From: Cyanophora paradoxa CCMP329 | Lineage: Eukaryota; Plantae; Glaucophyta | Length of the DNA: 64,000 bases | Reading direction: 5' to 3' | Assembly: GCA_004431415.1 (NCBI GenBank) | Contig: QPMI01000064.1 | Coordinates: 344,345-408,344 of the forward strand | In this document: piece after piece, positions 43,869 through 64,000 of the stretch | How the letters are laid out: each line of letters opens with the position of its first letter | Position numbering within the stretch: the stretch's first letter is position 1 | The notes under the pieces: generated by a model | The model's database searches: none | The model's input: only the letters and a program-made list of their open reading frames with translations | Told to the model about the DNA's origin: nothing | Made by a program: the position numbers and the translations under genes

Positions 43869-43869
43869 G

Positions 43870-45298: not shown

Positions 45299-45563
45299 CC
45301 GTAATGCATTTTATTAATGCGCGCACTTAATTAATGCGGCACCAAATTAATGCGCGCATGCGTTTTCCGCTGGCAAAACGCATTAATTTGGTACCGCATT
45401 ATTATCGAAACGCTAAGAAACTGCTGTATATGTACCCCCAACCGCAGCCAAAAGGCTTCAAAACGCATTATATATATTAATTTGGTGCCGCATTAATAGA
45501 CATTATAGGGGTCCGGGTCCAAAAACGCATTAATATCTGGCGCATTAATTAAGTGCATTACGG
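45299..45563 (+). mobile_element. CCGTA-family MITE (TA TSD)
   Basis: ta|ccgtaatgca...tgcattacgg|ta, with internal attaatgcg repeats. Confidence 0.85.
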
Positions 45564-45950
45564 TATATCGCGTGCTCGATCGAGCTCGACCGAGCCTCGA
45601 CGTCGACAGCGCATCATGGGCATGCGCGCGCATGCGCAGTGCGCACAGCCTGGGCGGCACATGTACTAATGATGTACAGCGGCTACAGCCTCGCGATCGA
45701 CTCCGGCGACTCGGCCGCCGGGCCAGCTGCGCATGCAGCCTGGCAGGCTGCAGCCTGCAGTTGGCGAGTCAATGGCGACGTTGGCCGCGGTTGGCCGGGC
45801 GTCGTCAACTTGGCGAGTCGCGAGTCGCGACTCGCGAGTCGCGATCTACCGGCGGGTACAGTAGCCGCTGACAGGCTAGCGCTGGTACCGTAGTACTACG
45901 GAGTCTACGGTACCGCCGGGCCGGTAGGGCTGTCGACGCCTGTCGTACTA

Positions 45951-46197
45951 CCGTAGAACACTTAAGTAATGCGCGCACTTAATTAATGCGCCCCCGAATT
46001 AATGCGTTTTCCAGCAGCAAAACGCATTAATTCGGGGGCGCATTAATATCGAAACGCTAAGAAACTGCATTATGTACCCCCCAACCGCGGCCAAAAAGCT
46101 TCAAAACGCATTAATTCGGGGGCGCATTATTAGCCATACTAGGGGTCCGGGTCCAAAAACGCACTAATATCGGGCGCATTAATTAAGTGTTCTACGG
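45951..46197 (+). mobile_element. CCGTA-family MITE (TA TSD), best-preserved copy
   Basis: Perfect 15-bp TIR ta|ccgtagaacacttaa...ttaagtgttctacgg|ta. Internal hairpin gcgcccccgaattaatgcgtttt...aaaacgcattaattcgggggcgc. Confidence 0.9.
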
Positions 46198-46444
46198 TAG
46201 TACTACGGTACGCGTAGGACGGATACATCATGGCATCATGGCATATACGGCGTTCGCGTTCATTGCAAAAAGCAGCACTCGAGCCGGCGTCGGCCCGGCG
46301 AGCTCGTACTGCTCAGTGCTGCAGCAGCAACCGTGAAACAGCACTGACTTTGAGCACTGCGGTGGCAGCATGCGTAGTCGTGTGCATCAGCGCGGAGACG
46401 ACGCGAACGCCTGTGAGCTCCCGCGCACGATCGCAAATCCCGCC

Positions 46445-48559
46445 ATGCCGAATGCCAACGCAACTCCAGCACGTAATAACACCCGGATATCGACGCGGAC
46501 GCTCAACGTTGACAAGTACATGCACAAGCTCCGGCAAATCTGCACAGGCGCGCATGCGCAGACGAGGGCAGCACTGCAAACTACGTCGAACCACTCTGCA
46601 GCTGCGTGCGAGCGCGATCCACGCGTACGCCGCATTTGTTCTCGGTCTGATTGCGCCGCTTGAATCTCCATCTGACGTTGTGTTGGCCATGGGCAGGACT
46701 GCGCATTCCGGCCGCCCTCGCCCTCGCCCTCGACCGGCGACGACTCCGACGTCGATCGCGATGTCATCTGCTTGGAGAGCAGCAGCAGCAGCGCTGGCAG
46801 CAGCCGTCGGACCAGCGTCGCGTCGGGTTCCGCCTGCACGGACAATGACAGCGATCGCGAGGGTCTGAGTCCCCTCCGGAGTGCCCGGAGCGATCCGAGC
46901 AGCAGCCTCCCGCGGCTCCCGACGGCGCCGGCTTCCGGATCCGCAGCAGCGCACGTGTCGAGGCTCAGCATTCCGAGGCCGAACTCGTGCCCAGAGATCG
47001 CTGTGGTGGATTCCTCGGGCTCGAAGCTCAAGTCCCCCAGATCCAGCGGGGCGGTGATGCCCCCCAAGTCCTTCGGGGAAGGCTTTTTGAAGCCTGCGTC
47101 AAGATCACTGTCAGCGGAGGGCACGCAGCCTGCACAGTCGCCTTCGGAGTGTGCCTGCCCAGATTCCAAGCAAGGGTCGATTGCCGCCACTTACTACAAC
47201 GAAAAGCACGACCAGCTGGAGAGTCTACTCTCGTGCGTCTCGAAGTCCCAAATAGTCGACCAGGTTCGAATATACTTAATTTCGAATTCGCTTCGAAGGA
47301 TTTTTTTTGACCGCGACGTCAGCTGTGGGACGCTGTGGTCGCTGTGGACACGACAATGGCCGCCAAACGGAAGGCGGCGCCATCCACGTTCTCCCTCCTG
47401 CGATCTCTGCCAAAGCCGTCCGCGTTGGAAGCTCCCGCGATCGAAGGCGCCCCCGGCCCGTCGCGGACCACCTCGGTCACGTACACGGCATACGAGGCGT
47501 TCCACATGGTTCGTGCTTTACATTTTTGATTTGCACACCCGCGGCCGCGCACACTCCGGAACTCCGTCTGATTTCAACTGAAATCCAACAGGCTCTGCAT
47601 CGCGCGATTTTCTCGCCAAGGGCGACATGGGATCTCGATGACGGCAAGAAACTGGCACAGGTGCGAATTTATTCTGATGAACTGAATGCTGATGATCACG
47701 AGCGGCAGTAATATTAATAAAGGGGCACACGTGCGCAGGCGAACTGGACCATCGACACGGACGCGTGCGGGGGCACGCAAATGTCGCGGGAAGCGTTCGA
47801 CAGGGCGGTGCTCAACGTGTCCAAGTTCTGGGCCGCGCAGCTCGAGAGCAGCGGGGTCGTCACCGGCATGCGGCTCCTGGCGGCAGACGCCGGCCTTCCG
47901 GCCGCGGCCGCCGCCTCGCGGGGCCTCGAGCTCGTCTTCCTCGCTTGCTTCACCGCGGTGCGAATCCGGATCTACGAGCTCGAGTCTGAAACTCTGCGCG
48001 CGCATCTCAAAACTGATCATGAACCGGTTTCAATTCTCAGGCCGTGACGAAATCGGCGTCGACGTCTCACGCTCGCGAGACCTCGTGCGCGAGCTCGAGC
48101 GCAAGCAACCCGGTGATCCGTTCTTGGTTCGGTGCGCTACAGCTACAGTTCGTTCGAGTGCAGCGGCATGTGCATTTCGCTGACTGCGATAAATTGTTTC
48201 GTGCCTCAGAGGTGAAGCTCGGCGTTTGCCAGCCGAAAGGAGTCATGTCCACGCTCCAGAAGCTGATCGAAGCCCGCCGCGCCCGCTGCGTGCGGTGCCG
48301 CGCCGGGTACCCGAACGTCAACACGCCCGGCCGCGGCCGCTCGAGCTCCAGCCTTGGGACTCCCGTCGCGCCCGTATGCGCCGAGAAAAGCTCGTCGGAA
48401 CCGTGCATGGAGCTCGAGCGGGCTGCATCCGCTCCCGTCTTGGCGTCCGCTGGCGCCGGCCCCTGCTCGCCCTCCGAGGGGCTCCTCCGCTTTGCCCTGC
48501 ACAACCGCATGGAGAAGATCCTTGAGCAGCGCCGCAGAGCTAGTTCTCAATCACTGTAG
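46445..48559 (+). CDS. Hypothetical multi-exon Ser-rich protein; last host gene before the viral insert
   Basis: Exons 46772-47263, ~47323-47508, ~47591-47661, ~47739-47957 and the final exon(s) to the stop at 48559, with GT-AG boundaries; start approximate. Confidence 0.55.
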
Positions 48560-48986
48560 CTGCGCATGCTTATTCGAATTCGCCCTTGTGGATATGCGCA
48601 TGCCTTGGCCAATGTCTCTAGCATGTGCAGTACGTACCTTTTTCCCCTAGCGAAGTATTGATTAAACTTTTGAAATTAATAGAAGTATTCTCCACAGTAT
48701 TTATATATCCGCGCATATATGCATTTCTTCTTCAATCAGCATGGGCAGTTCCTTCGATTCTTCCAGGGCGATCTACTAGCATGATATATATATTAGCCTA
48801 GTAGATTACGTATACGTCGATCGACTTGAGTTTAGTCTCCGTGCCACGGTGACCCGATGATGTTAAACTACTGTAGACTTCCTTTTTCTAGATCTAGCTA
48901 TAGTTGCGTTTTTTCGGAGATTCGCGATCGCAGTTGTGTGTTTAATTCGCAGATGTATACGTCTACGTATACGTATCCGCTATATA

Positions 48987-49489
48987 CCTCGGCCGCCCCC
49001 TCCAGCAGCGCCGGCCCCAGCCCCGTCCCCTTCTCCCTCGCCGACCGCAGCCCCGTCCCCGCCGCCTTCGCCGCGCCCGTCCCCGGCCCCGGCGCCGTCC
49101 TCTCCGCGATCCAGGGCTTCGGGGCCCAGCAGGAGGCCGAGCGGCAGGCGCTGGCGGCGCGCCAGGCGCGCGAGGCGGAGGAGCGGCGCCAGGGCCTCTG
49201 GGCCCAGCGCCTCCAGCGCACCCTCGCCTTCCGCGCCGAGCTGGAGGCGGGATTCCGCGCCCGCCAGATCTCCGGTGCGGAGGCCTCGGAGACTTGGCGG
49301 GCGTTCGAGGCGGAGACGGCGGGGCTGGCGAAGACCCTCGCCCAGCCCTACCGGCGCGTGGCCGTCCCGCAGTCCTACGCGCGGCGGGCGACGCTGGAGG
49401 CCTCGCGGGCGGAGATCGACGCGGCGGAGGAGCAGGCGGAGCGCGAGGAGGCCGAGGACAACGCGCGCTTCCGGCACCTCCACCACTGA
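48987..49489 (+). CDS. Viral hypothetical coiled-coil protein, 5'-truncated at the insert edge
   Basis: Intronless GC3-rich ORF ending ...EDNARFRHLHH*; the in-frame upstream part is palindromic host spacer. Confidence 0.55.
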
Positions 49490-49536
49490 GGCCTCGAGGC
49501 GGTATTTTTCTCAACCCCTTCCAATTCGGTCTCGCG

Positions 49537-49728
49537 ATGGCCCTCGCTGACAGCTATCCCCCGCATTACTCGCTAGGAGCCCTCGCCGCGACCCTCACCT
49601 GGCTCCTCGGCGGCACGCCCACGGCCTCGGCCGTCATCGGCGTGGGCTTCGGCTACGCCGCCAAGACCCTCTACGCCCCCGGCTCCGTCTCGATGGCGAC
49701 GGCCGGCATGCGCCCCGCCGGGCGTTAA
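49537..49728 (+). CDS. Viral small hydrophobic/membrane protein (63 aa)
   Basis: MALADSYPPHYSLGALAATLTWLLGG...VIGVGFGYAAK; atttttct motif upstream. Confidence 0.6.
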   Translation: MALADSYPPHYSLGALAATLTWLLGGTPTASAVIGVGFGYAAKTLYAPGSVSMATAGMRPAGR

Positions 49729-49835
49729 CTCTCCCTTTTCAAAGTTCCATTCCCCCCTTTCCCTTTTCAAAGTTGCGACGTCCTTTTGAGTCCGTTGGCA
49801 TTTAAATTTTCTTCATCGTCTGTACACGTCTAAAC

Positions 49836-50332
49836 ATGCCCAACGCCGTAGAGAAGCTGTTGTGTACGGTGTTCAAATCGGACTCGCGCTGCAGCAAGAT
49901 CGGCGAGGCTGCCAAGGGCGGGGGCGGGGCGAAGGCCGGCGGCGGGGCGGAGGGGCCTAAGATAAGGGGCGCGGACCCGGCGCCGCCGGCGCTAAAGTCG
50001 ATTAAGGCTGCGGGCAAGGGCCGCGGCGTCGGGCCCCTGCCCCTCGTGGCGATCGCCCCGGGCCAGCGCGAGGCGGCGCACGCGGCGACGGCGGCGCTGG
50101 CCTCGCAGCAGCAGAGGGAGGGGGCGCCGCGCCTGAGCGCCGGCCTCTGGTCGCAGCCTGCGCCCGCGCGCGAGTACGGCGTCAGCGCTTACTTCGACGG
50201 CGCGAACGAGCTGAGCCGCCAGGAGATCTGGCCTGGGAGGCGCGGCGCGCGGTCGACGGGCACCTGCCGTTGCTCGTGGCGCTCGGCGGCTCGCTCCTCA
50301 TGGTCTGGTACCTGCGCGGCTTCGCGATTTAG
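49836..50332 (+). CDS. Viral hypothetical protein with C-terminal TM segment (frameshift near 50235)
   Basis: The shifted frame gives ...HLPLLVALGGSLLMVWYLRGFAI*. Confidence 0.55.
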
Positions 50333-50361
50333 ATAGATTTTCGAAGCGCTAGCTAGTAGAG

Positions 50362-50688
50362 ATGAGCTGGCTCGACGCGCTGCTCACCAAGACCTTTGGG
50401 CCCAAGGGCGCGCCGCGGCTGCAGTTCGGTGAGCTCAACGCCGCGATCGGCGCCACAGTCGAGATGAAGAACCGCGAGAACGTGCTGCGCGGCGACGGAG
50501 GCGCGTGGGCGGACATTGCGGCGGGCGCGCTGGGCTCCGCACTCACCGCACCGGGCAAGGCGGGCCGCGCGCTCACGGACGTGGCCGAGCGCTTCTGGCA
50601 CTGGCTCAAGGTTGCCGTGGTCATCGCCGCAGCGGTTGTGGCGGGTCTCCTGGTGCTCGAGGCTCGCGCGCTATTTTCTAAACGCTAG
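50362..50688 (+). CDS. Viral membrane protein (108 aa)
   Basis: Intact ORF with C-terminal WLKVAVVIAAAVVAGLLVL. Confidence 0.7.
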   Translation: MSWLDALLTKTFGPKGAPRLQFGELNAAIGATVEMKNRENVLRGDGGAWADIAAGALGSALTAPGKAGRALTDVAERFWHWLKVAVVIAAAVVAGLLVLEARALFSKR

Positions 50689-50704
50689 GTAAAGCGAGCG
50701 AACC

Positions 50705-51106
50705 ATGCCCCGCGGCGGCTCTTCCCCCGTGTCTCCTTCGCTGAGAACGAAGTCGCCGCTACCCCCTGGAGCCCGGCGTCAAGCTGGAGCGCGCGAACGC
50801 AGTCTCCGTCAAGAAGGCCAAGCGCGCGCTGGTTCTAGAAGTCCCAAGACCGCCTCGCAGTTCCTTCCCACGTCCGAGTACGACGGCACGGAAGATACGG
50901 AGAAGGTTGCATTCAACAAGCGCAAGACGTACAAGGCGATACGCGAGGGCCAGCTGCTGCCCACGGACGCGGTTCCCGGGCTGCCGGGCACCACGGCCGG
51001 CGAGCTGCTCGTGCGCAACCTGCGCCTGCAGTACGTCTCCCGCCTCCGCCGCTCCAAGGCCAAGAAGGCGCGCCTGGACTCGGGCGATAGCAGCTCTAGC
51101 TCGTAG
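50705..51106 (+). CDS. Viral basic hypothetical protein (133 aa)
   Basis: Intact ORF with attttcta at 50673-50680. Confidence 0.6.
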   Translation: MPRGGSSPVSPSLRTKSPLPPGARRQAGARERSLRQEGQARAGSRSPKTASQFLPTSEYDGTEDTEKVAFNKRKTYKAIREGQLLPTDAVPGLPGTTAGELLVRNLRLQYVSRLRRSKAKKARLDSGDSSSSS

Positions 51107-51122
51107 GGCTCTGTACTCAATA

Positions 51123-51406
51123 CTACCAGTTCCTGTTCCTATCCCAGAGCACGACTCGGGTAAAGGGCACGGTCATAGCGAACATGAACTCGGCAAACTT
51201 GGAGAAGTTCATGAGGGTCCTAGGCGCGGGTCCTCCCAGTAGATAGCTTCGCGCAGGGACTCGTAGATGCGCATGAGGGAGCGCTCGTTCTCGGTCGCGA
51301 AGGCGTCGGAGGGCTCGTCGGGATCCGGATCCGAGAGCTCCGAGTACTCGTCCGAGCTGCCAGCGCTCTCGACGCCTGCGGCCGGGTCGGGCGAGGGGTC
51401 AGCCAT
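51123..51406 (-). CDS. Viral small acidic protein (frameshifted)
   Basis: MADPSP...ENERSLMRIYESLREAIYWED, continuing in another frame as TLMNFSKFAEFMFAMT. Confidence 0.55.
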
Positions 51407-51432
51407 TCTTTGCTGGTAGAAGGGCTAGAAAA

Positions 51433-51774
51433 TCACGGGCGCCGGTACTCCATCGAGTCGCCGCGCCAGTACTTGTTGCCGGAGGCGAGCAGCTTCATCG
51501 GCTCGCCCGTCGAGTCGTGCGTCCAGGCCTCGCCCGTCCAGACGGCCGTGCCGCCGTCCTCTAGCTTGAGGCGGTGGCCCGCCTCGAGCCGATCGCCGTT
51601 GAGCATGCGGCCGGCCATGAGCGCCAGGTCCCACTCGGTGAGGCCGCGCTGCTCTTCGGGGGTGAGGCCGCGCTCGACGCGCTCGGGCTGGCGCGCCTCG
51701 CGCTCCATGCGGCTGAGGCCCACCAGGAAGAAGATCGGCAGCGCAAAGGCCATGAGATCTAGCAGGGCCTCCAT
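51433..51774 (-). CDS. Viral protein with N-terminal membrane anchor
   Basis: Intact ORF beginning MEALLDLMAFALPIFFLVGLS. Confidence 0.65.
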   Translation of the reverse strand: MEALLDLMAFALPIFFLVGLSRMEREARQPERVERGLTPEEQRGLTEWDLALMAGRMLNGDRLEAGHRLKLEDGGTAVWTGEAWTHDSTGEPMKLLASGNKYWRGDSMEYRRP

Positions 51775-51783
51775 TGGCAAGAC

Positions 51784-52077
51784 TTAGAAAAGGTTCCGGG
51801 CCAGGCCCGAGAGCTGCGGGCCCAGGCGCCGGGCGGCGTAGTAGAGCGCGGCGGCCGCGGCGGCCAGGATCAGAAGGCGCGGCGGGCCGCGCGCGGGCTC
51901 CTCCAGGGTCAAGTCCACGGTCTCTGGCTCGCGGGCCGGCGTCGCCAGGATCTCGGGCTCGGAGCTAAGGGACTTGGGCCCGCGGCGGCGGCGCTGCTTG
52001 GGGGCGGAGGCGGCGGCGGCGGCGGAGAGAAGGTCCTCGGGCTCCTGCTTGATACCTGCGCAGTCAGTAAAGTCCAT
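51784..52077 (-). CDS. Viral protein with C-terminal hydrophobic segment (97 aa)
   Basis: Intact ORF containing RLLILAAAAAALYYAARR. Confidence 0.6.
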   Translation of the reverse strand: MDFTDCAGIKQEPEDLLSAAAAASAPKQRRRRGPKSLSSEPEILATPAREPETVDLTLEEPARGPPRLLILAAAAAALYYAARRLGPQLSGLARNLF

Positions 52078-52761
52078 GCTTGCTGGGTACCTCGGAAAAT
52101 TGTGGGAGGTGCCCGGCGGCTGCGAACGTAGGATGGGGGGAGAAGTGACGCGGACGCGAATACGTCATAGTCGAATACGTCATAGTCCAAAACCTGGACT
52201 CGGACTCGGCCCGGGCCCTGGGAGGGGGGTACATGTTATGTCCAAATGTCCAAATGTCCAAATGTCCAAATGTCCAATTGAAAGGTTGCGGAGGTTGCGG
52301 ACGCGTCACAAATACGTCATAGTCGAATACGTCATAGTCCAAAACCTGGACTTGGGACCTGGGCCCAGACTCTCGCCAAGTTTCAAATAATAATACTGTA
52401 CCCTGTTATCTGCAAGCTTATCTTATCGTTATCGTGTCACCTATCCTATCCCGATCCTATCGCTATCCTTTCGCGATCGCTTGACTACACTATTGCATTC
52501 ATTGCTTTTGAATGTAGTTAATGTCATAGCAACTTGAACATGATGTCATGATGATTTCAAGTTAAATACCGGGGTACGGTGTTTTTGTTCAAGTCTCTTT
52601 TTTTTACCGGCAGGGCCGGGCCGAGTCCCGAGTCCAGGTTTTGGACTATGACGTATTCGACTATGACGTATTTGTGACGCGTCCGCAACCTCCGCAACCT
52701 TTCAGTTAATTAATTAAGCACTGGGCTAGCGCTAGGCTAGCTAGATATCGATACCAGCTAG

Positions 52762-53190
52762 CTAGCTCAGCTCTACCCTGCCCAAGTTGATGGTATCTAG
52801 CAGCGCCTGCTCCTCTAAGTCTGCACCGCCTCCTCCTAGCGCTAGCGCTAGCTCGATACCGCCTCCAGACTTGATCTCCCTTGGCTTCAGCCACCGAAGG
52901 GGCTCAGGCCACCTCCTCCTGGTGAAGCCGGTATCGTTGCGCTTGTCCAGCTTGAGGTAGCGGTAGGGCGCCGGCGCCGGCCAGTCGGGCCTGTGGCTGC
53001 TGGCCTCCTTGGCTATGTCCTTGGGCCTACGCGGAAGCAGGTCGGCCTTGGCCTTGGCCTTCTGCAGAGGGCCCAGCGCCTTGAACTTCGGTGCCTTCGT
53101 CGCCGGCAGGGCCTTCGGCTGAGGCTTCGGTGCCTTCTGCGCCTTCGTCTTCGGCTGCGGCTGCGGCTTTAGCTGCTTCGATTTCGGCAT
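52762..53190 (-). CDS. Viral Lys/Pro-rich basic protein (overlaps next ORF)
   Basis: 142-aa ORF MPKSKQLKPQPQPKTKAQKAPK...; its 3' end is invaded by ctag-rich sequence. Confidence 0.4.
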   Translation of the reverse strand: MPKSKQLKPQPQPKTKAQKAPKPQPKALPATKAPKFKALGPLQKAKAKADLLPRRPKDIAKEASSHRPDWPAPAPYRYLKLDKRNDTGFTRRRWPEPLRWLKPREIKSGGGIELALALGGGGADLEEQALLDTINLGRVELS

Positions 53191-53428
53191 ACTTCTTGCT
53201 CATAAATGAGAAAAGCGCCTCGAAGTCGGCTTTTATCTCCTCCTTGGTCCAGGATGTCATCTGAGTCGGGTCACCTGAGAACGGCGCATCGAACGCCACG
53301 TGGAGCGATTTGCAGGCCTGAGCTATCATTGGCTCCGGCCAGGCCAGCTCGATCAGCTGAAGGTAGATACTGAGGGCCTTGTCGAGCTTGGCGCCCTGGG
53401 AGACTAGCTGGGAGATGGCGGGCTCCAT
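53027..53428 (-). CDS. Viral hypothetical protein (133 aa)
   Basis: Intact ORF with attttct upstream. Confidence 0.6.
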   Translation of the reverse strand: MEPAISQLVSQGAKLDKALSIYLQLIELAWPEPMIAQACKSLHVAFDAPFSGDPTQMTSWTKEEIKADFEALFSFMSKKYAEIEAAKAAAAAEDEGAEGTEASAEGPAGDEGTEVQGAGPSAEGQGQGRPASA

Positions 53429-53678
53429 GGTACTGGATTAAGCAGCTAGCGGGGTTCAGAAAATGGCGCCAAGTCCGAGCTTATTTTTTACCGGCGGGGC
53501 CTGGGCCGAGTCCCGAGTCCAGGTTTTGGACTATGACGTATTCGACTATGACGTATTCGCGTCCGCGTCACTTCCCCCCCTCTTCAGGTGAGCGCTCACC
53601 TGACCCTCACCTGAACGGCCTCAAAACCGCAGCCGCGCCGCGCCCTCGCTCACACTTCACAGCCAAGAGAAATCAAGA

Positions 53679-53967
53679 ATGTGCGCCCCAAGTACGAGAC
53701 CTGCTGCCTGACCTTCGGCATCTTCGAGTACGAGGCCATGGACGAGGATCTCGACGAGAACGGCGAGATCTGCTTCAACTACTGCAGGCTGCTGCGCAAC
53801 ATCTCGCTGGAGTGCCGCAAGGGCGACTGCTTCCAGCACATCATGCTCAATCCGCCAAGAACGAGATCACCCTGTACGCCGTCGCCAGCCCCAGCGCCAG
53901 ATTTAGACTCTCGAATATTCGCGTAGCCGTGATTGAGGCTCTCCCCCTCCCCAGTGAGACGAATTGA
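53679..53967 (+). CDS. Viral small Cys-containing protein (frameshifted)
   Basis: Pieces PKYETCCLTFGIFEYEAMDEDLDENGEICFNYCRLL and AKNEITLYAVAS lie in adjacent frames. Confidence 0.5.
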
Positions 53968-54081
53968 ACACGTGTTTTACCTGAATCACCTGAGCGCTCA
54001 CCCGAGGTCAGCCTGAAGTCAGGTGGGGCGGCCTTAAATATTTTCTAGCGCTAGGCTGATCGCACACTAAGCTCAGACAAC

Positions 54082-54875
54082 ATGGCCACCGTCCGCAACG
54101 CCACCGAGATCGACCCCGCCAAGCTCGCCTTCGAAATCGATGCCAACGGCCGCATCAAGGCCAAGTACGACGGCCTGCAGGGCCTCATGATGTACGCGCC
54201 GCCCATGGTCACGATCAACCCGTGCATCAACACCGAGCAAGGCAAGGCGTGGAGCGACGAGAAGAAGGCCTTCGTCATGGAAGAAAACGGCGGATTTTAC
54301 ACGCTGGACCTCACCGATCTCAGCGCCGTCGACGGCCAGACGAACCCAGCCGCGGACGAGTTCCTCAAGCTGCTGGAGGCCCTGGACGCGAAATTCTGCG
54401 AGTTCGTGCAGCAGAACCAGGCCAAGCTCAAGGTCTCGCCCGGGCGCGCCCTCTCCAAGGATCAGATCTCGGTGCTGCAGACGCCCAGCGTGCGCATCAA
54501 GGTCGACAAGGAGTCGGGCCAGGCCTTCTACAAGTACCTCAACATGCGCATCCGCACGCAGACGATGGCGGGCAAGCGCAAGACGATCCCAGTCGTCGAC
54601 ATGTCCAACTACCTCATCACCGAGCGCGCCACCATCGGCACCGGAGACCTGGTGGCGGCCCTCGTTAAAATCGACACCGCCTACGCCATCCCGAGGGCAA
54701 GTTCGGCCTCAAGTGGTCCTTCCTCGCCGTGCAGCAGTGCAAGGTCGGCGCCTTTCGCTTCGCCGGCCGCACGCCCGAGCTGGCCTTCAAGCCCTACGAC
54801 AACGAGGCCGATTTCGAGCCCTACCTAAACCCCGAGTCTATGTACACCACCCCATGCAGTAGTTTAGACGAATAA
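54082..54875 (+). CDS. Viral single-stranded DNA-binding protein (OB-fold, DUF2738/T7 gp2.5-like NCLDV SSB); frameshift near 54692
   Basis: FYTLDL...EFLKLLEALDAKFCEFVQQN...GDLVAALVKIDTAYAI, then shifted GKFGLKWSFLAVQQCK and an acidic/aromatic tail. This is the typical NCLDV SSB layout. Confidence 0.75.
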
Positions 54876-54916
54876 ATTGTAAATTCTCTGGTGCAATTGA
54901 TTACAAGCGTTTACAA

Positions 54917-55715
54917 TCAGAGGCCGTTGAACTTGCCGCCCACCGCCCTGGGCTCCGCCGCCGTCGAGGCCGCCGCCTCCGTCACCTCCTTCATCATCTC
55001 CGGGTTCGCGTTGGCCGCGTGCACCGCCAGCACCGTCTGCACCAGGGCCATCCCCAGGCGCGCCTCGGGCCCCAGGGTCACGTAGCGCGAGTACTTAATC
55101 ACCAGCTCCTCTAAGATCGGCTGCACCTGGTCCATGGAAGAGAGCGTCGCCTGCCCGAGCCCGTCTAACTTCAGGCCGATCGGATCGTACGCTTTGTTAA
55201 GGTGCTCCAGCGAGTGCATGCCCGCGATCAGAAAGAGGCGCGCCGCCTCCAGCGAACCCCGCGTGCTCAGCTCGCGCTGAATTTCCTCGTACTCTTCCTT
55301 CAGCTCGTCCAGCGGCGTGGCGAGGCTCAGCTTCTTCGTGGACGTCAGCTCGCCCCGAACGAGCGCCTGTACTGCGCGATCTGCCGCAGAACCTGCTTCT
55401 TCTCGTCCACGTCCACCTGCGCCTCGTCGCGCGGCCTCTCCTGCAGGTCGATCCCCAGCGCCTTTTTCACGCTCTGCTCCTTCTTCTTCGTCATTTCGAT
55501 GTGCTCCTGCACGCTGAAGCTCGCGCCCTTGCTCGGCGCCGTCGGCGGCACCGTGGCCCGTCGCCCGGTAGCGACGTCTTGTCGGCCTTCGGCGCCTTCT
55601 CGCCTTTTCCTTGCCTTCCTTCGCGGGCGGCCCTTCTTCCGAGGCTGCGGGATCCCCACCGGGTTCGGCCCGTCCACGGCCAGCGCGTCGAAGCCCAGCA
55701 TCGCCGAGGGTCCAT
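54917..55715 (-). CDS. Conserved NCLDV-type protein (DUF5767-like), frameshifted
   Basis: LDELKEEYEEI...LEHLNKAYDPIGLKLDGLGQ...PILEELVIKYSRYVTLGPEARLGMALVQTVLAVHAAN resembles the LDG..EL..KY..PE.RL pattern of this family. Confidence 0.6.
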
Positions 55716-55749
55716 GGTTACGCTTGCCCTTAGAAATTTCCTCGGATTT

Positions 55750-56078
55750 TTACTCCGACGTCAGCTCGACGAAGAGCTCGATGTAAAGCCACAGTTTCTC
55801 GCGCAGCTCGGGCCCGCTCCCGTAGAAGAGCGAGCGCACGGCCGAGGCGTACTCCTGCGGCAGCTTCTCGAAAACTCCGTCGTCCCGCGCCTTAATTAAT
55901 TCGGCCTCCGCGTTGATGTGCCTCCTAAAGAGAACGATGACCGCCGTGGCGCCTATGCCGCGCAGCGACTGGATCTGCGCCCGCACCCCGGCTCCTTGGC
56001 CTCCGGCTCCAGCAGGTCGAGGAAGCGGCCCCAGCGCGCCTCGATCTGCTCGCCCAGCGTCGCCTCCGTCGCTGCCAT
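55750..56078 (-). CDS. Viral small helical protein (frameshifted)
   Basis: WGRFLDLL...ELIKARDDGVFEKL...REKLWLYIELFVEL; similar in pattern to small helical NCLDV proteins. Confidence 0.55.
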
Positions 56079-56092
56079 GTCGCTAAGGGGCT

Positions 56093-57209
56093 TTAGAAAT
56101 TAGCGGCCAGGGATGCCGCCGCCTTTTGGTACATTTCCGCCATGCGTGCGTTGGTTTCCCGTCGGATGTTCTTCTGTCTGTCCTGAGTCTCCACGACCAT
56201 GGCTTGGAATGCCTTTTGGATGTCGAACTGATCGTCGTTTCCATCCCTGCGACAGTACCCTCCTGTCGCACCTGGTTGAGAGCTTCGCGCTGATCCGAGG
56301 TTGTAAAGTCTTTCCCTACGCGATTGTTGGGGTTCACCACCCTCGGCAGCAGATTCTGGTCCGCATACGGCCATGCCGTCGGCAGCGCAGGGCCCCGCGT
56401 GCCTTGCTGGTCCATGAGCATTGCTCCGAAGGGATTGCCCTTGCTGAAGTCGACGTCGTTCCGTCCGTACGGCCTGTTGTGCTCGCTGCTGATGTTCGCC
56501 GTCTGCGCGTTGAACATGGGCGAGAGGTCGGGCGTGTAGCCGGCGCGGAAGCCGCCTTGCCGGCAGCATCGACGGGCCGTAGCGCCCGGCGGGCCCCAGC
56601 AGGTTCTCCTTCTCGATTCTTCCATCGTCTTGATCCAGCCGCGCTCGCGTGCCCACTTCATGACGAGATCGTCGTAGTTCATCGGGAAGAAAACCTTCTG
56701 GTACTTATCGAAACGCTGAATTTCGATATCCTGCTCGATCATGTTCGTAATTCGCTCGAGCAGCTCGGGGTAATATTCCTCGAGCATTTTAGCCACGCCG
56801 GGCTGCTTCAGGTCGAAGGCCGTCATGGCCCACTGGTCGAAATCGCGAATCATGATTTCCTTCCGCAGCGCGAACGCATTCTCGACGTCCTCTTCGTTGA
56901 TCTGGCGGTTGGGATAGGCATTCTGCAGCTGCTGCCGAATGCCCATCCGCATCAGCTTCTCCATCTGCGGGGTGTACTTCATCGCGGCAGGGTCTTCGTG
57001 GGAAGGGCCGTCAACCCGAGGCCCCGCGCCTGATCCTCCGGCGTGTAGATGTCCGCCTTGCCCGGATCTGTGACGTGCACCTCGGGTAGGATCGTGCCGG
57101 CGCATACTTCTCAATGATGCCGTCACCTCGCCCTTCAGGTCGTTCTCAGCGACTGGCGCTGCTTCTTAGAGCCCTCCCCGATGTCCATCATGGAATGGCC
57201 CTTCGTCAT
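56093..57209 (-). CDS. Viral hypothetical (possibly structural) protein downstream of MCP; frameshifted
   Basis: Core DFDQWAMTAFDLKQPGVAKMLEEYYPELLERITNMIEQDIEIQRFDKYQKVFFPMNYDDLVMKWARERGWI. Confidence 0.6.
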
Positions 57210-57299
57210 CGTGCCTCGGTTAGGATCCCAGTGGGAAAATTATTGGTTCACATCGGCGACCGAGGCTCGCCCCCTCTCACACTCTGGCTAGCTGGCAAT

Positions 57300-58736
57300 C
57301 TAATGGAAGCGGCGGTAGGCGCCGCCGTTGATGAAGCTGATCTCGTTGTAGTAGCGGCAGTAGATATCGGCGATCGCGTCGTCAGCGTCCCCGCCGTGGT
57401 GAGCGTGAGCTCGATCGTCTTGAAGGCGCCGAAGTCGAGGCCGCCGAACATCTTCGTGTCGTCTGCCACCTCGGTGCGAAGGGAATAGCGTAGATGAATT
57501 CGGTGCCGTACTGAGCGGAGGCGGCGGTTGCCGCGCCGTTCTGCACCGCTGGCATGATGTCGCTGTTGTTGTAATCCTGGGTGTCAAGGTGGTGATGGCG
57601 GTGTCGTTGCCCGACCACGGGTGCGGGTGAAGGGCATTGCGCAGCGCATTAATGATGGAAACCTCGTTGGTACCGTACGTCGTATCGGCCGCCTCCGCCA
57701 GGGCCTTTGCGCCGTTGGCGTCGGTGTTGTCGGCGAAGCCCTGCAGCAGCTCGAGGTACTTGCGCGTGGGCACGTTGCGGTGCTCGCGGTTCGCGATGGC
57801 GGTGCGCAGGAAATGCGCGTCGTGAATAGAGCTGTCGAGCGCCTTGATGTTATCGCACTTGAGGTCGATTTTGCTCAAGGGCGGAACTTCCAGAAGTTGT
57901 ACCCCTGGTCCGTCGCGGCGCCGTCGCGTACGACAATTACCATCTCGTAGCAGACGCCAGTGAACGGCAGCGGAAGCTCGTGCCGCTCGTGAACTTTACG
58001 TTGTACGACTGCATGTACTTGCCAGCCCACGTGACGCTGTTGGGTGGAGGCTGAGCTCGTACGGGCTCACGTGGGTGTAGCGCAGCACGAGCTTCGAATC
58101 GAGGTCGGTGGTCGCCGTCAGGCCACTGTCGGTGTGGATTCCGGTGGTGACCCAGGTGGCCGTAACATCCTTGTGGCTCGCGTACGTGATCTGAATCTTG
58201 AGGTCGTTGCCCGAGCCGCGGAGCTTATAGAGGGCACGGCGAACTTGCGACCGTAACCGGTGAGAACGCGGAGCGGGATGTGAAGCACCTGCGCCCGCTG
58301 GGAGCGGCGCAGCAGAACCTGTGTCGCCCAGCACTCGTTGATCAGGTTGACCGTGTGCGGAACGGAACGATCCTGCTCGAGCTCGTCGTAGATGGCATCG
58401 TAGGCGCCCTCGTACTCGTGGACGAGCTGCGTGCCCACGAAAACCTTCACCTTCTTCAGCAGGATGAGGCCGGCCTTCGGGAGGTAAATCTTCCCGGAGG
58501 CCACCGCAGGCAGCTTAACCTTGAGCCAAATATCGTTGATGAGGGCGCCGAGTGCGGGATGATGAAATCGAGGTCTGACCGAAGCTGATGCCGCTCTGGA
58601 CGGGGCTGACCTCCAGCACCTCGTCCACGAAGGGCGTCGCGGTGTCGAAGGAGTCGTTCACGTGCACGGACGAGTTCGAGCTCAGGAGCGACTGCGCGAG
58701 GGCGGTGGTGGGGGCGGAGATGAGCGCGGAAGCCAT
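57300..58736 (-). CDS. Major capsid protein, NCLDV-type double jelly-roll (multiple frameshifts)
   Basis: Stitched motifs: ISFGQT...GALINDIWLKVKLP; GLILLKKVKVFVGTQLVHEYEGAYDAIYDEL; LHIPL; NDLKIQITY; FIYAIPFA...FGGLDFGAFKTIELTL; DIYCRYYNEISFINGG. About 480 codons. Confidence 0.9.
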
Positions 58737-58761
58737 GGTTTAGGGGTGCGTTGAGAAAATT

Positions 58762-60880
58762 TTACGAGGCACCGCCAGCCCGTTTCACTTGCTCGGCAAC
58801 CTTGTACAGGCTACGCGCGTCGAAGTCACCCCTCATGAACTTTCGAATTGCAATTTCGGGAACGGCCTCGATTATGTCGTTCGGCAAGTCCAGCAGCATC
58901 TTTGCTTTTATCACGAACCTCTTCTTCAATTCCGTCTTTTGGAACTCTTCCAGATTGTCGGCTCGCTGAACCTTCGCCACGAGCTCGTCGAACACGACTC
59001 TCACCTTTGCCGCTTTGAGGTCCTCCTCCATTTGGATGGCTTCACGTTCGGCAGTCTCGGGTGCATCTTCCATTTCGATTCGTTCGCGATGCTTGCCTCG
59101 AGTGCCTGCACAGCCTCATTCACAGCCTCTTCTTCCATCGCAACTGGCGGGCCCACCGCCGCCTCCAGTTCCTGGCGATGGTCTTCCCTTACGACGGCGC
59201 GGTACTGCTCCGCAGTGCCGCTGCGCCGCTTTGCGAGCACTTCTTCGCGGCCCTGTCCCAACCGTTCGCTGGCTATGTCCGTGCGCCTGTTGTAACCCTG
59301 CAGAAGCATGGATGCCGCGGTGCCCTGCTTCGAACCCCCCTTGCGTTTCTCTTTGGGTCGATGAGGTTCTCGATGGTGCGCGCGGTGACGAGGGCCGCTG
59401 ACCGGGATCGAAGAGCTGGGTACAGCCACCGCCGGGGGAGGGCAGCCCCGGCACTGGCAAAAGTTTGCGCGACGGCGTTGGCCGCAGCCGTGGCCGCCGC
59501 CTCGGCCGCTACCACCTCTGGCGGGCGCGAGGCCCCGCCTGCGGCTCGGGCGGGGCGGGGCGGGGGCTGCTGCTCCGCGGGGGCGCGGATGGCCTGGCCA
59601 CCGTCGCCGGGGCTGGAAGGGCCGGGCTGGGGCGCCAGTGGGGGCGTCTGCGGCGGCCTCGGTGGCGCGTCGCTGGGCCTCCCCCCTCCATCGCCCATAT
59701 CTACATCGCCGTCTCCGTTGCCAGGGGGCGGCCTTGGCCTGCGGGGGGCGCGAAAGGCCACGCTCGGCTTCTTGTACGGCAGCTCTGCCTGGATGAGCGC
59801 TTCCTTGGCGCCATTCCCGTTAAGGGCCTGAGCGCCGCGCTCATCGACGGCATCATTGTCGCGTTGCGTAAGTCGTGCACGCTGGTCCCTCTCCTTCTCT
59901 AAAATTCCGCTGAGCCGCGAGAGGTTCTTGGTCAGGCGTCGATCTCTGCACGTTCATCGCGCTGGCGACTCTCGTTGGGCCCGGGCCTTCATCGTCTTCG
60001 TCCGGCGGATCGGCCTGGCAAAGGTTTGTAGGTGTTCTTCTCCGAATAATCGGGCGGCTTGCCATCGGGGAATGCTGCGTGTGCGTAAATGCTAGTGGGT
60101 TTGAACTCTTCGCCATTGATGATGTACTTGTAATAATAGTAGCATCATCGAGGTTCATCGGGCCGAGCGTCTCAAGCGCTTCTTGCGCTTCAAGAATTCC
60201 GTGACTTGGTCTTCCTTCGACATGCAAAATTCACGTACGCCCGGAGAACAGTTAGATTCTTACCGTCCACGTCGCAGCGCCGGCCCCAGCGCTTTCGTTC
60301 CAGACGTGAAGGCAGATTGGCCCATGAGCCAAGCGCGGAAGCCCTCCTCGTACTCTCCGTCGATTTCCTGTTCCATGTCTTTGAACTTGTTGATGTAGTA
60401 CGCATTTGCAATTGCCTGCGCCTCTACCTCTGCAAGTTTATCGACTTTTGCCTATCCTCGATGCGACGCACGTCGTCGGACCGGTGCAAGGCCGTCTTTG
60501 CCATCTGCTGGAAGCGCGCGTACTTCTCGCTCTCAAAGGGCGTGATTGCGAGTCCCCGCCCCCGGGACTGCCAGCACGTTGCGGGGCGCGAAACGCGAGG
60601 CGAGCCCCTCATTTGCTCTTCTTAGGGTGGCCTTTGAAATTTATCGGTCTTGGCCTTGTCTTCCTTCCCGTCCTTCTTATCGCCCCCTTCTTCCCCTGCT
60701 TCGTCGGCGCATCGCCACGAATATTTCGCCGGGCGAGACGTCCTCGTACAGCGGCTTCGGCCCCTTTGGAAATTCGGCGGGCCCTTCAGCTTCTCCTTCG
60801 CCTCCTTCACCTCCGCCTTTGTCGGCTTCTCCTGTCCGTTCGTGGCGCCTTTTTCGCGGCTTCTTCTGCGTCTCCGGCAT
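58762..60880 (-). CDS. Large viral protein (heavily frameshifted; possibly 2-3 ORFs)
   Basis: ATG at 60880 with upstream motif. Fragments EGFRAWLMGQS, PGVREFC, LGPMNLDDA(Y)YYKYII, a Pro-rich linker and a coiled-coil C-terminus ending at 58762. Confidence 0.5.
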
Positions 60881-60892
60881 AGCTTAACCACG

Positions 60893-61215
60893 CCAGAAAA
60901 ATATGGTTCGCACCCCGTACGTCTCGGGGAACTGCCTCTCCCACCTGCGCATGGCCGCGTCCCTCTGGTCGTCGAGGCTACGGTAGGCGCGGCCCTCTGG
61001 CCCATCACGATTTGCCAGAGCCGTGCACGGACCTCGTCCTGCAGTCTGTACACCCAATCGCGAATGTTCTCGACGATATCCGTCGGCAGCGTGGCCAACC
61101 CCGCCTTCAGCTCAGGCACATCCGTGGATCCTCTTCGAGCGTCAGCTTTTGCATGCGAGCGCGCAGCATCTCAATTTGCGTATCAATTGGGCCCAGTAAG
61201 GACAGATCGAGACAT
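60893..61215 (-). CDS. Viral hypothetical protein (frameshifted)
   Basis: PIDTQIEMLRARMQKL...ELKAGLATLPTDIVENIRDWVYRL. Confidence 0.45.
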
Positions 61216-61226
61216 CGGGGTACGGA

Positions 61227-61487
61227 TCACTGAGAAATTACACTGGGTCGGAAGAGGAGGTACCCCACCAGGATCCCCGCTATAATCCAGAGGGCGACCA
61301 GTCGCGCTCCGCCGCCGCGCCCCCGTGGTGCTGCAGCAGCTGGGCGGCCCCCGGCCTGCTCAGCCCGTGCGTGCGTGGTCCGTGTAGTGCGGGCGCGGGA
61401 ACTGCTCCTGCGGCACGCGAGGCGGGTAGATGCCCTCGAAATGGTTGCGCATTGGTACATATCCCTATCGAACAGCAGGGAGGCCAT
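61227..61487 (-). CDS. Viral small protein with C-terminal TM helix
   Basis: ...LVALWIIAGILVGYLLFR; atttcta motif upstream. Confidence 0.55.
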   Translation of the reverse strand: MASLLFDRDMYQCATISRASTRLACRRSSSRARTTRTTHARAEQAGGRPAAAAPRGRGGGARLVALWIIAGILVGYLLFRPSVISQ

Positions 61488-61701
61488 TTCTTAATTTGGG
61501 AGGGACTTAGAAATACTGCCGTGAGCTCCCTGTCGCGGATCCTGCGAAAGTCGGCGAAGAGGCCGCGCGCGCAGCGCCTGCAGACGAGGCGGGCCGCCCG
61601 CCCACGCGCGCCACCGTGATCTCGTGCCGAACTGCAGGTGGCCCGGGAAGCAGGTGGGGGTAGTCGCAGACGAAGCAGTGGCAGGCAGTTGCGCCGCCGA
61701 A

Positions 61702-62082
61702 TCACTGCTGAAGAATCGCAGGCTCGCTCGCCGCCTTCTTCGGCGCGCGCTGGCGCTTCGGACTTGGCTCTCGGCGGGCGCCGAGTCGTCCGCCGCGCCG
61801 CCGTCTTCTTGACCCGGGGCGCCGCGGGGGCTTCGGACCGTAGGGCTGCCGGTGCCTGGCTCGAGCCGGCGCCGGGCCAGTGGCGTGGGCCACCTGCGGG
61901 CGCTGCGGCGGGGGCTGGTCTCCGGCCCCTCCTCGAGGACCCGGCGCATGAAGCGCGAGACCCGGCCGCTGCATTGCGTGCAGAGCCGACGGCCACCTGG
62001 CGGTTGTTCTTGCTGGTACGCACCTCGACGTTGGCGAGCTTGGTGTTGGAACGCACTTGAAGCAGTAGTGGGCGTGCTCCAT
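61702..62082 (-). CDS. Viral zinc-ribbon protein (DUF5679-like) with basic tail; frameshifted
   Basis: MEHAHYCFKC / RSNTKLANVEVRTSKNNRQVAVG / CTQCSGRVSRF fits the YCxKC...KNxR...GxCxxCG pattern. Confidence 0.7.
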   Translation of the reverse strand: MEHAHYCFKCVPTPSSPTSRCVPARTTARWPSALHAMQRPGLALHAPGPRGGAGDQPPPQRPQVAHATGPAPARARHRQPYGPKPPRRPGSRRRRRGGRLGARREPSPKRQRAPKKAASEPAILQQ

Positions 62083-62083
62083 G

Positions 62084-62246
62084 CTAGCTACGGATGTAGC
62101 AGCCTTCAGAAAAAAGTGCGTAGTAGCGGACGGCGCACCGGGCGCAGCAGACGTAGACGCCCGCTTGAGCACCCAGCCGCGCTTGGTCTGCGGCAGGCGG
62201 CAGATTTCGCAGCAGAGGGCCTGGGCTTGCGGCACGAGGATCCCAT
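62084..62246 (-). CDS. Viral small CxxC zinc-finger protein (frameshifted)
   Basis: CCEIC...VYVCCARC; atttcta motif at 62260-62266. Confidence 0.4.
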
Positions 62247-62265
62247 CTGGCGCGGGGCCTAGAAA

Positions 62266-62740
62266 TCACAATGGGATCACAACGGATTGAGGCGCGTAGA
62301 GGCGATTAAGTAGGCGTCGCAGAGTCGTCGAGCTTGCCGTTGCGATCCGCGATATCGGCAAGCTCGGCGGGTACAAGTCGCGGCACTTGTCCACGGCGCC
62401 GCGCTTGCGCTCCTTGTAGCTCGGGTTCGAGATCTTGAAGAAATGCTTGATGGCGCGCGGGCTCACGATCCGCGCACGCCCGTACAGGAGGCGTGGAGCG
62501 TGCACTCGATGCAGCGATTAATTCCCGTCCTCTGGCCCTCGATCGCGATCTGGTCGGGAAGCCGAACGCTATGGCCGCGAGTAACCTCAACCAGGCGCGC
62601 CACAAGGCGCCACAGCAGCGCGCAGACGGGAAGAGGGCGATCTTTTGCCAGTCGAGAATCTGGATTCCTTTGTCTGCGGATCGAATTCGATGAGCACAAG
62701 CGAAATTAATGACCCCCACATCCACGCCGAGAATCTTCAT
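62266..62740 (-). CDS. RuvC-like Holliday junction resolvase (poxvirus A22 family), frameshifted
   Basis: MKILGVDVGVINFAC, PDQIAIEGQ, IVSPRAIKHFF, YKERKRGAVDKC and KLDDSA supply all the catalytic motifs in successive frames. Confidence 0.9.
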
Positions 62741-62775
62741 TCCGAGTCACAAGAAAATCTGAATGAAGGGGTAAA

Positions 62776-63804
62776 ATGGCCAAGGACCCAAGAAGCCGAA
62801 GAAGCCGAAGGCGGCCAAGCCCCAGGCCGCCCAGCCCGCAGCGCAGCGCCCGCGGCCCCGCCCCCGCCGGCCAGGCACCGGCTCGGGCTCGGGCACCGCC
62901 CCGCCGCCGGCGCCAGCTGCGCGATGGTATGACGGAGGACGGCATGCAGCTCACGCCCGAGCAGGTCAACGCCTTCCTCGACAACTCGAAGACGGCGGCA
63001 TCGAGCGCATGGCCTGCCTGCCCGAACTTAAATGGTTCGACGTGAACACCGTGAAGTCCGACGCCACCGTCGTCTGTGTCGGCAAGCGGCGCACGGCAAG
63101 TCCTTCTTCCTTCGCGATCTCATGTTCAACCTCTCGGCACCTTCCCGGGGTATCGTAATCAGCCAGACCGATCGCCTGAACGGTACTGGAAGCAGTACAT
63201 ACCCCAGCGCTTCATCTGCCCAAGTACAACCCGGGCGTGCTCTTCCATTTATTCAGGAGACAGCAGGCGATCATGCAGCACAACAAGTCCGAAGACGTGC
63301 TGGCGGAAAGGAAGATCCCGTCGACCCGCGATTTTTCGTGCTGCTCGACGACGTGATTTCCGACGCGCGGCTGCGGTACGACGAGGCCCTCAACGAGCTG
63401 TTCGTGGCGGGGCGCCACTACAAAATCATGACCCTTATCACGACGCAGTATGCCAAGGGCATCAATCCCGTCCTGCCGCTCCAATACTGATCTGGCTGTC
63501 ATTTTCAAGTGCTCGCAGGCGATGCAGCGCGAGGCCCTCGCAAAGGAGTGGGGCGACATCATATCCCAGCGCGCCTTCTACTACCTGCCTCGATAAATAC
63601 ACGCAGGATAACCACTGCCTTATCATCGATTCTTCCAACAACTCTACGAACCCTCTGGACGTCCTTTACGTCTACAAGGCGAGGAGCCGCCCCCGTTCCG
63701 AATCGGATCCAAGGAGTACTGGAGGGCGAAACCGTCAACGGGGAAAATCTCGTGGGTCCGGACGACGGCACGGTGGACAAGACGCTCCTCGGCATGATAA
63801 ATAA
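62776..63804 (+). CDS. A32-like genome packaging ATPase (FtsK/HerA), frameshifted
   Basis: Walker A VVCVGKRRTGKSF, Walker B FFVLLDDV, ELFVAGRHYKIMTLITTQY, RSNTD, LDKYTQDNHCLIID and FRIGSKEYW. Confidence 0.95.
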
Positions 63805-63856
63805 TTTCAGGAAGCACGCGCCTCGCCTGATTTTTTCTGAGGCTACGTGCGTAACC

Positions 63857-64000
63857 ATGTCGCCAGCGCCCACATCGCCTCCGTCTTCCGCGTCGAGTCC
63901 ATCGCCTACGACTGCCTCCTGGAGGCCAGCCTTGACCCCTCCTCGCCCTTTAACGACGGCGAGGTCAGCAGCGCCCTGGAGAGGATCTGCGACGCGCTGG
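63857..64000 (+). CDS. Start of next viral ORF (truncated by the window edge)
   Basis: attttttct at 63830-63838, ATG at 63857, then coding-like sequence. Confidence 0.45.
   Translation, partial: MSPAPTSPPSSASSPSPTTASWRPALTPPRPLTTARSAAPWRGSATRW

Follow-up and report, generated by a model that had tools for sequence, protein, structure and literature searches.

The window analysed here is a stretch of 64,000 nt from contig QPMI01000064.1 of the glaucophyte Cyanophora paradoxa CCMP329 (assembly GCA_004431415.1). Host DNA occupies the window up to position 48,987, and the remainder (48,988-64,000) is viral. The element is read, with a probability of about three in four, as an integrated small double-jelly-roll (DJR) DNA virus of C. 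paradoxa, which would form a separate branch of the Mriyaviricetes beside 'Gamadviridae', replicate in the nucleus, and have its circular or concatemeric DNA repeatedly captured at chromosome breaks. Its compact viral part contains 22 ATG-started open reading frames (ORFs) and one 5'-truncated ORF, and most of them are split into several frames. A preliminary description of this DNA reported about 23 abutting intronless ORFs from 48,988; the number stands, whereas the ORFs are not all abutting, as 52,078-52,761 and 53,429-53,678 are non-coding. The features of the locus, in positions of the window, are as follows.

46342-48987, plus strand (from the GT-AG orientation): host flank, a spliced gene of no recognised family with a likely 3' untranslated region (UTR); single copy, with unitigs at single-copy depth and 0 differences
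48987-48988, no strand: host-virus junction in a short TA-rich tract, placed by unitig crossings; the empty allele runs on as an AT repeat
48988-49489, plus strand: viral ORF, 5' end cut by the junction; other copies continue in frame
49537-51106, plus strand: four small ORFs, three with hydrophobic stretches and one basic; no family matched
51209-52077, minus strand: three small ORFs, one acidic and two with hydrophobic stretches
52136-52707, no strand: non-coding inverted repeat (z -17.7), with 90-nt arms at 52276-52365 and 52618-52707 that are 94% complementary, a 252-nt AT-rich spacer and a partial third arm
52762-53428, minus strand: ORF in two frames, second half K/P-rich; no family matched
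53513-53580, no strand: fourth repeat arm, 99% complementary to 52136-52203
53679-53926, plus strand: small Cys-containing ORF without the common upstream motif
54082-54872, plus strand: single-stranded DNA-binding protein (SSB), homologue of gamadvirus PEV_26 by profile match
54917-55715, minus strand: DUF5767 protein (Pfam and profile), the Mriya_48 envelope protein by gene position
55750-56078, minus strand: PEV_20 homologue by profile; position conserved
56083-57210, minus strand: Mriya_51 homologue by profile
57300-58736, minus strand: DJR major capsid protein (MCP), 481 aa, nine one-base gaps in this assembly
58762-60612, minus strand: long ORF region, Mriya_1 domain at about 59.99-60.45 kb
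60622-62082, minus strand: four small ORFs, namely K-rich, helical, a membrane protein (61227-61487), and one with two Cys-x2-Cys pairs
62266-62740, minus strand: RuvC/A22-type Holliday junction resolvase (Pfam Ydc2, E 0.019; gamadvirus RuvC profile)
62776-63832, plus strand: A32-type genome-packaging ATPase, 356 aa in sister copies, by alignment to P0186
63857-64000, plus strand: next viral ORF, cut by the window end

The junction and the host flank

The boundary at 48,987/48,988 is crossed by short-read unitigs at single-copy depth with 0 differences, reaching 49,074 in run X5 (87 letters into the virus) and 49,105 in run X10 (118 letters). A unitig of run X1 also extends to 49,016 with 0 differences, but its 29 letters past the junction are too short to count as bridging. 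Long reads spanning the junction had been proposed as a check on the integration; by these short-read unitig crossings, the junction is real and not an assembly artefact. Moreover, a contig of run X16 matches 48,209-48,987 exactly (779 letters) and then leaves the window, continuing with 102 other letters (an AT repeat and other sequence) that have no second occurrence in the window. This empty site is one contig of depth 7.7 from one RNA-like run, whose contigs include a spliced intron. Since the DNA runs show no branch at the junction, the simplest reading is that the X16 contig stems from a culture line lacking the insertion. The insertion of this copy looks recent. Other copies extend to the left of 49,076 in the frame of the first viral ORF (X10 record 3 and X16 record 9, frame read by eye), and therefore this copy begins inside a gene and not at a terminal repeat; no terminal repeat of the left end was found inside the window.

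The intron-rich host gene that the preliminary description placed directly left of the virus is confirmed by an X16 contig that spans a GT-AG gap (46625-46696). More GT..AG introns were read at about 47.26-47.74 kb, and five fragments of this gene (46,342-48,559) had no Pfam match. The virus begins about 430 nt past the likely stop, so the insertion would alter the 3' UTR. The host DNA also includes a PDCD5-type exon at 35.2 kb (PF01984, E 3e-17). The CpG ratio cannot tell virus from host (1.14 and 1.15). Two places in the host DNA, 43,500-46,200 (3 kb left of the virus) and about 4,100-5,130, carry a MITE-like repeat family that is AT-rich, contains short inverted repeats and has a very high read depth. 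Another host repeat of about 440 nt has two copies (7,310-7,746 and 14,733-15,183; 89-94% identical), and a Thr/Glu/Pro-rich host ORF at 20,934-21,435 contains 18-nt and 15-nt tandem coding repeats.

Frame breaks and sister copies

Alignment of the MCP with the sister model P0015 showed 472 identical codons, no substitutions and nine one-base gaps. A 1,372-nt short-read unitig (X1) on the MCP gene likewise had 0 other letters and nine gaps, and 2,847 nt of unique flank showed no differences. The ATPase and P0186 share 334 identical codons, with 7 substitutions and 17 small gaps. The frameshifts are long-read errors, and the genes are intact. As decay would give more substitutions than indels, the breaks probably reflect failed polishing of a repeat family. 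The nine MCP gaps were not enriched at homopolymers (2/9 near runs of at least 3; 20% expected). The host gene models P0002, P0009, P0025 and P0032 merge adjacent viral genes via false introns that span sequencing errors.

Further copies in the assembly, for which the preliminary description suggested a search, are abundant. The six proteins retrieved with a capsid fragment are all EukProt models, and the full-length capsid retrieved 14 clusters; 24 members were read from 5 of the clusters, and every one has a Cyanophora paradoxa accession. MCP models are located on 32 contigs, ATPase models on at least 20 (15 of the 18 members of the largest cluster listed), and both on at least 17, with a union of at least 35 contigs. 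The capsids comprise three subtypes, with 59-69% identity between and 92-99% within them, and nine ATPases are 96-99% identical. The ratio of unitig depth to flank depth for this subtype was 12-18 in 2024 (X1) and 10-16 in 2012 (X10); the other subtypes gave 40-53 (X1), and the left end gave about 50 (X5). The read depth suggests roughly 50-70 copies, although unitig depth is a rough copy measure to which free viral DNA may contribute. A viral content of >1%, listed for Glaucocystophyceae in the available text of 10.1101/2025.04.19.649669, is in keeping with this number. The element had been called a provirus, which holds for its integrated state; it is, however, no single relic but belongs to a set of dozens of young copies whose frames are intact.

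Giant-virus elements have been reported in C. paradoxa, and the viral genes there are described as mostly methylated and silent in the portion available of 10.1101/2025.04.15.648976. Host CpG methylation is likely to keep most copies silent. None of the runs listed as containing this DNA is recorded as RNA. Contigs of run X15, guessed to be RNA, lie on the genes for capsid, SSB and ATPase but not on the repeat region; these were not used as evidence of expression, because level and strand are not readable from contigs and DNA carry-over is possible.

Viral proteins, inverted repeat and upstream motif

The MCP was recognised via an intact sister model (Pfam Capsid_N). Its predicted fold is a DJR of the type of the nucleocytoplasmic large DNA viruses (NCLDV; pLDDT 68, TM-score 0.62-0.66), and in the fold search NCLDV types come ahead of the virophage and adintovirus capsids, which occupy ranks 40-48. 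The best row of a PDB sequence search reached only E 0.048. The ATPase was compared after thinning, with 22 of 105 gamadvirus-type and 10 of 47 giant-virus proteins kept; it is 44-55% identical to the former (including PEV1a, 49%) and 31-34% to the giant-virus A32 proteins. In a quick tree of three groups, its long branch, shared with two relatives at 88% and 79% identity, arises at the gamadvirus radiation. These relatives, found in other assemblies outside EukProt, are the ATPases of P0064 (ENA, 3,350-nt contig) and P0065 (Logan, 8,181-nt contig).

A 60-aa piece of the ATPase also recovered 37 IMG/VR loci, all with the gamadvirus gene set in a fixed order (RuvC, MCP, Mriya_1, PDDEXK, SSB, ATPase, VLTF3, minor capsid, and more), and one ATPase cluster includes PEV1a by name. 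Two JGI metagenome loci were found at 51%, whereas no close relative was obtained from IMG/VR with SSB, MCP alignment or P0043 baits. Profiles built from the IMG/VR loci match 6 of the 12 mriyavirus core proteins, namely MCP (weakly), ATPase, RuvC, Mriya_1, Mriya_48 and Mriya_51, as well as two gamadvirus-specific proteins, SSB and PEV_20. The RuvC profile matched one fragment at E 4e-4, and the frameshift-aware score was 39 versus 15-20 in four controls. The SSB matched the PEV_26 profile at E 6e-20 to 2e-19 (26-35% identity) and Atlas DUF2738/DUF5871 clusters at 0.93-0.95; its best PDB row, the SSB CP312R of African swine fever virus, reached only E 0.077. The DUF5767 protein (Mriya_48) matched at E 4e-13 in Pfam and at E 7e-25 by profile. 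PEV_20 matched at E 5e-4 among 1347 segments. Mriya_51, an abundant virion protein in yaravirus (PMC11253617 Table 1), matched at E 2e-9, and its fragment had no usable match in the Atlas. For Mriya_1, the sister model P0025 matched at E 3.6e-11, but the window fragment only at E 0.024. The names Mriya_1, Mriya_48, Mriya_51 and PEV_20 follow gene positions on one reference locus (L101), and the equation of Mriya_48 with DUF5767 and the name PEV_20 hinge on that count. The order Mriya_51, PEV_20, Mriya_48 is conserved with gamadviruses, and at E 1e-4 none of 70 giant-virus loci was matched by the profiles of SSB, Mriya_48, Mriya_51 and PEV_20.

These results bear out the NCLDV-type DJR capsid, A32 ATPase, A22/RuvC resolvase and DUF5767 protein of the preliminary description and lend support to its DUF2738-like SSB. 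Its several small membrane proteins also agree with a hydrophobic 19-mer (mean of at least 1.66) in 4 of the 9 small ORFs tested. The DUF5679 assignment was not confirmed, since two fragments gave 0 Pfam matches; two Cys-x2-Cys pairs, which we take to be the motif of that family, are visible across two breaks. RNA polymerase, DNA polymerase B and integrase families, likewise described as absent from the 15 kb, were not found among 54 fragments scanned with Pfam, which is a weak negative because the reading frames are broken. Of the gamadvirus-specific genes (PEV_26, PEV_20, PEV_22, PEV_34, PEV_35, PEV_14, PEV_15, PEV_27 and others), PEV_26 and PEV_20 were found, and PEV_34 gave a weak signal; the remaining clusters for which a profile was used had no match in the 15 kb. 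This possible PEV_34 match in the acidic small ORF of 51209-52077 (score 26 versus 17-18.5) disappeared with a tighter profile, and a PEV_14-like score at 63.9 kb was rejected as lying on the opposite strand of a real ORF.

The inverted repeat sits 3 kb inside the left end. A 29-nt unit with two TGACGT sites has four exact copies at 52.1-53.6 kb (0 expected), which form two nested inverted pairs round the spacer; the unit was found in 0 of 220 loci. The repeat may be a candidate origin or enhancer, or the joined genome ends, and may resemble baculovirus hr and herpes origins. An 8-nt unit is repeated five times at 52,238-52,277, between the first two arms.

Most viral starts (19 of 22, versus 24 of 305 other ATGs) are preceded, at a distance of 17-41 nt, by WTTTC, frequently as WTTT(T)CTRA; the motif was picked after viewing the same upstream regions, and one start was set 1 nt off. 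Among the starts that lack it are those of the ATPase and of the ORF following the fourth repeat arm. Similarly, TTTCTRA is found upstream of 187/1,045 gamadvirus starts versus 188/13,196 other ATGs (loci L001-L102), with a peak 20-28 nt before the ATG; no earlier description of this gamadvirus motif was found in the literature searched. The motif includes the TCTA late motif of CroV/ChlorV (PMC13196603, part available).

Placement of the virus and comparison with known systems

The features characteristic of Mriyaviricetes that were found here are the NCLDV-type DJR MCP, the ATPase grouping, RuvC, Mriya_1, Mriya_48 and Mriya_51. Membership in this class is likely, not proven, because no HUH, VLTF2/3, helicase or PDDEXK gene was found in the 15 kb covered. 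The mriyavirus affinity, the true integration and the glaucophyte host claimed by the preliminary description are all supported. Of its label 'Yaravirus-like', the mriyavirus affinity stands; the nearest group is 'Gamadviridae', a specific link to Yaravirus was not shown, and the capsid is outside the gamadvirus crown. Likewise, of the MCP and ATPase phylogeny that it proposed, the ATPase falls at the gamadvirus radiation, whereas the MCP does not. In the MCP trees (44 rows, and then 26 rows with 7 long-branch hits and 11 reference rows removed), the gamadviruses form a 100/100 clade excluding the Cyanophora MCP, which by this capsid test is outside 'Gamadviridae'; grouping it with gamadviruses was nevertheless not rejected (P value of the approximately unbiased test, 0.25). 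Although the capsid lies outside that clade, the virus works like a mriyavirus and is likely one.

The following points, together with the roughness of the depth-based copy number, the single contig behind the empty site and the way in which the motif was chosen, weigh against the main reading. In both trees the MCP forms a long branch that belongs neither to the gamadviruses nor to the giant-virus set, and no tree includes a Yaraviridae, Zoravirus, VC134 or VC218 sequence, the giant-virus outgroups also being narrow. The MCP scored 15-28 bits with the giant-virus profile versus 6-14 bits with the gamadvirus profile, and its 17 nearest non-Cyanophora matches all carry Pfam Capsid_N (24-31% identity). 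The SSB and ATPase genes are 8 kb apart here, whereas they are neighbours in gamadviruses. Profiles of VLTF3, VLTF2, PDDEXK, minor capsid and Mriya_50 gave nothing above controls in the 15 kb, and a motif scan, made with no HUH or helicase profile, gave 7 H-U-H matches there, none resembling an HUH domain. The right end lies outside the window, with 15 kb of the element covered. TTTCTRA is also upstream of 48/288 giant-virus ORFs, and the motif is not diagnostic because giant-virus genes are marked by it as well.

From PMC11253617 and the gene functions, it might be expected that host polymerases copy and transcribe the virus in the nucleus. Rolling-circle replication would be initiated by an HUH endonuclease and a helicase encoded further right, with the inverted repeat as its probable starting point. 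The roles expected of the other proteins are coating of displaced strands (SSB), resolution of branched DNA (RuvC) and DNA packaging into a membrane-containing capsid (ATPase), and VLTF2/3 of the virus may guide host Pol II to WTTT(T)CTRA sites. Circular or concatemeric viral DNA might then be captured at a break in an AT repeat. For this last step host end-joining is somewhat favoured, HUH-driven insertion is possible but less probable, and an integrase beyond the window is doubtful. Mriyaviruses are said to have no integration genes (10.64898/2026.06.19.733378 section 6), and such embedded regions were read as accidental insertions (10.1101/2025.04.19.649669), both sources being available in part. 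Dozens of young copies and an empty allele suggest that the capture of viral DNA is frequent.

The best surviving alternative, although unlikely, is that the copies belong to the same virus class but are fixed relics, multiplied by host duplications or a helper giant virus and no longer self-moving. The methylated, silent state reported for viral genes in C. paradoxa would fit this, as would the similar depth ratios of the 2012 and 2024 runs; the CroV/ChlorV late motif within the upstream motif is also expected of a helper-dependent virus. However, a multi-copy virus adjoins a single-copy flank, the empty allele retains 779 identical flanking letters, and the frames are intact. In addition, gamadviruses with their own VLTF2/3 share the motif.

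It is improbable that the element belongs to the Zoravirus/VC134/VC218 type, that is, mriyavirus-related elements of 20-30 kb, the size of polinton-like viruses (PLVs), with their own rve integrase or tyrosine recombinase (YR). In these groups Mriya48 is present and integrases are frequent, while integration genes are absent from mriyaviruses (10.64898/2026.06.19.733378 section 6), and an integrase would account for dozens of copies; the capsid outside 'Gamadviridae' is also compatible. On the other hand, the ATPase identity to gamadviruses and the homologues of SSB, RuvC, Mriya_1, Mriya_51 and PEV_20 speak against this type, and the left end cuts a gene with no terminal repeat within the window and no integrase family in the Pfam scan.

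A fragment of an endogenous giant virus (Megaviricetes), the first label of the C. paradoxa viral regions, is very improbable. The MCP is closest to NCLDV capsids by sequence, profile and fold, and giant-virus elements are on record for this alga (10.1101/2025.04.15.648976, as cited above); yet capsid, ATPase, RuvC and SSB are all inside 10 kb, the MCP-ATPase spacing is 5-6 gene numbers in most copies, and four gamadvirus gene profiles match here that no giant-virus locus matched. Neither the A32, which is distant from giant-virus A32, nor the gene content is that of an endogenous member of Megaviricetes. A chimeric assembly, with free virus of a co-culture joined to a host contig, might account for the high viral depth and the many long-read errors in the viral part, but is already refuted for this junction by the X5 and X10 crossings.

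Beyond the placement as a mriyavirus beside 'Gamadviridae', a more far-reaching and tentative proposal is a third, temperate family of Mriyaviricetes that is still mobile, with 50-70 intact proviruses in the model glaucophyte, three capsid types, integrase-free HUH or end-joining insertion into AT repeats, and free relatives in nature (the ATPases at 88% and 79% identity). If true, the smallest Nucleocytoviricota would gain their first culturable system for studying latency and integration. Mriyaviruses are proposed to be the closest living relatives of the giant-virus ancestor, and their rolling-circle route is untested. Young, intact and apparently strain-variable copies in an easily grown alga bring within reach of sequencing and observation the questions of a latent chromosomal phase, the insertion route and the use of host Pol II. 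Caution is needed, as uncorrected long-read errors make such copies resemble dead pseudogenes and giant-virus debris.

The preliminary description expected a new host link, but this is not new, as Mriyaviricetes-related regions embedded in a Glaucocystophyceae assembly are already in bioRxiv 10.1101/2025.04.19.649669. Those regions have the same class, host class and embedded state, and are very likely the same element family. In the available text, that preprint has one sentence on them, and the words 'frameshift' and 'copies' occur 0 times; its Figure 5f or supplements may hold copy numbers or maps. No description of copy number, empty sites or a promoter motif for these elements was found in the literature, with subscription journals and preprint supplements not covered. 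The additions made here are the copy number, three capsid types, intact frames and the empty site, together with homology at the level of single genes and a capsid that falls outside each of the two described positions tested.

Among more distant systems, endogenous PLVs, virophages and the Zoravirus-type groups are likewise multi-copy chromosomal small DJR viruses in protists; however, they integrate with rve or YR enzymes and have defined ends. The Yaraviridae (Yaravirus brasiliensis) have core genes in common with the Cyanophora virus according to Table 1 of PMC11253617, a likeness taken from that table and not from direct sequence comparison. Yaravirus is a lytic amoeba virus, and SSB PEV_26 and PEV_20 are listed as gamadvirus-only in the part of that article available. 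The closest system is 'Gamadviridae' (Mriyaviricetes; PMC11253617), which includes the Pleurochrysis sp. endemic viruses and Phaglo-G, a scaffold in Phaeocystis (10.1101/2022.07.28.501842, part available). The two have in common the ATPase, SSB PEV_26, RuvC, Mriya_1, Mriya_48, Mriya_51 and PEV_20, as well as the Mriya_51-PEV_20-Mriya_48 order, the upstream TTTCTRA motif and a GC-rich algal host. In contrast, the gene order elsewhere is rearranged in the Cyanophora virus, with VLTF3, PDDEXK and minor capsid not next to the ATPase, and its capsid of 481 aa on its own long branch differs from the gamadvirus capsid of about 550 aa. Moreover, the host of 'Gamadviridae' is a haptophyte, whereas the Cyanophora virus resides in a glaucophyte with dozens of chromosomal copies.

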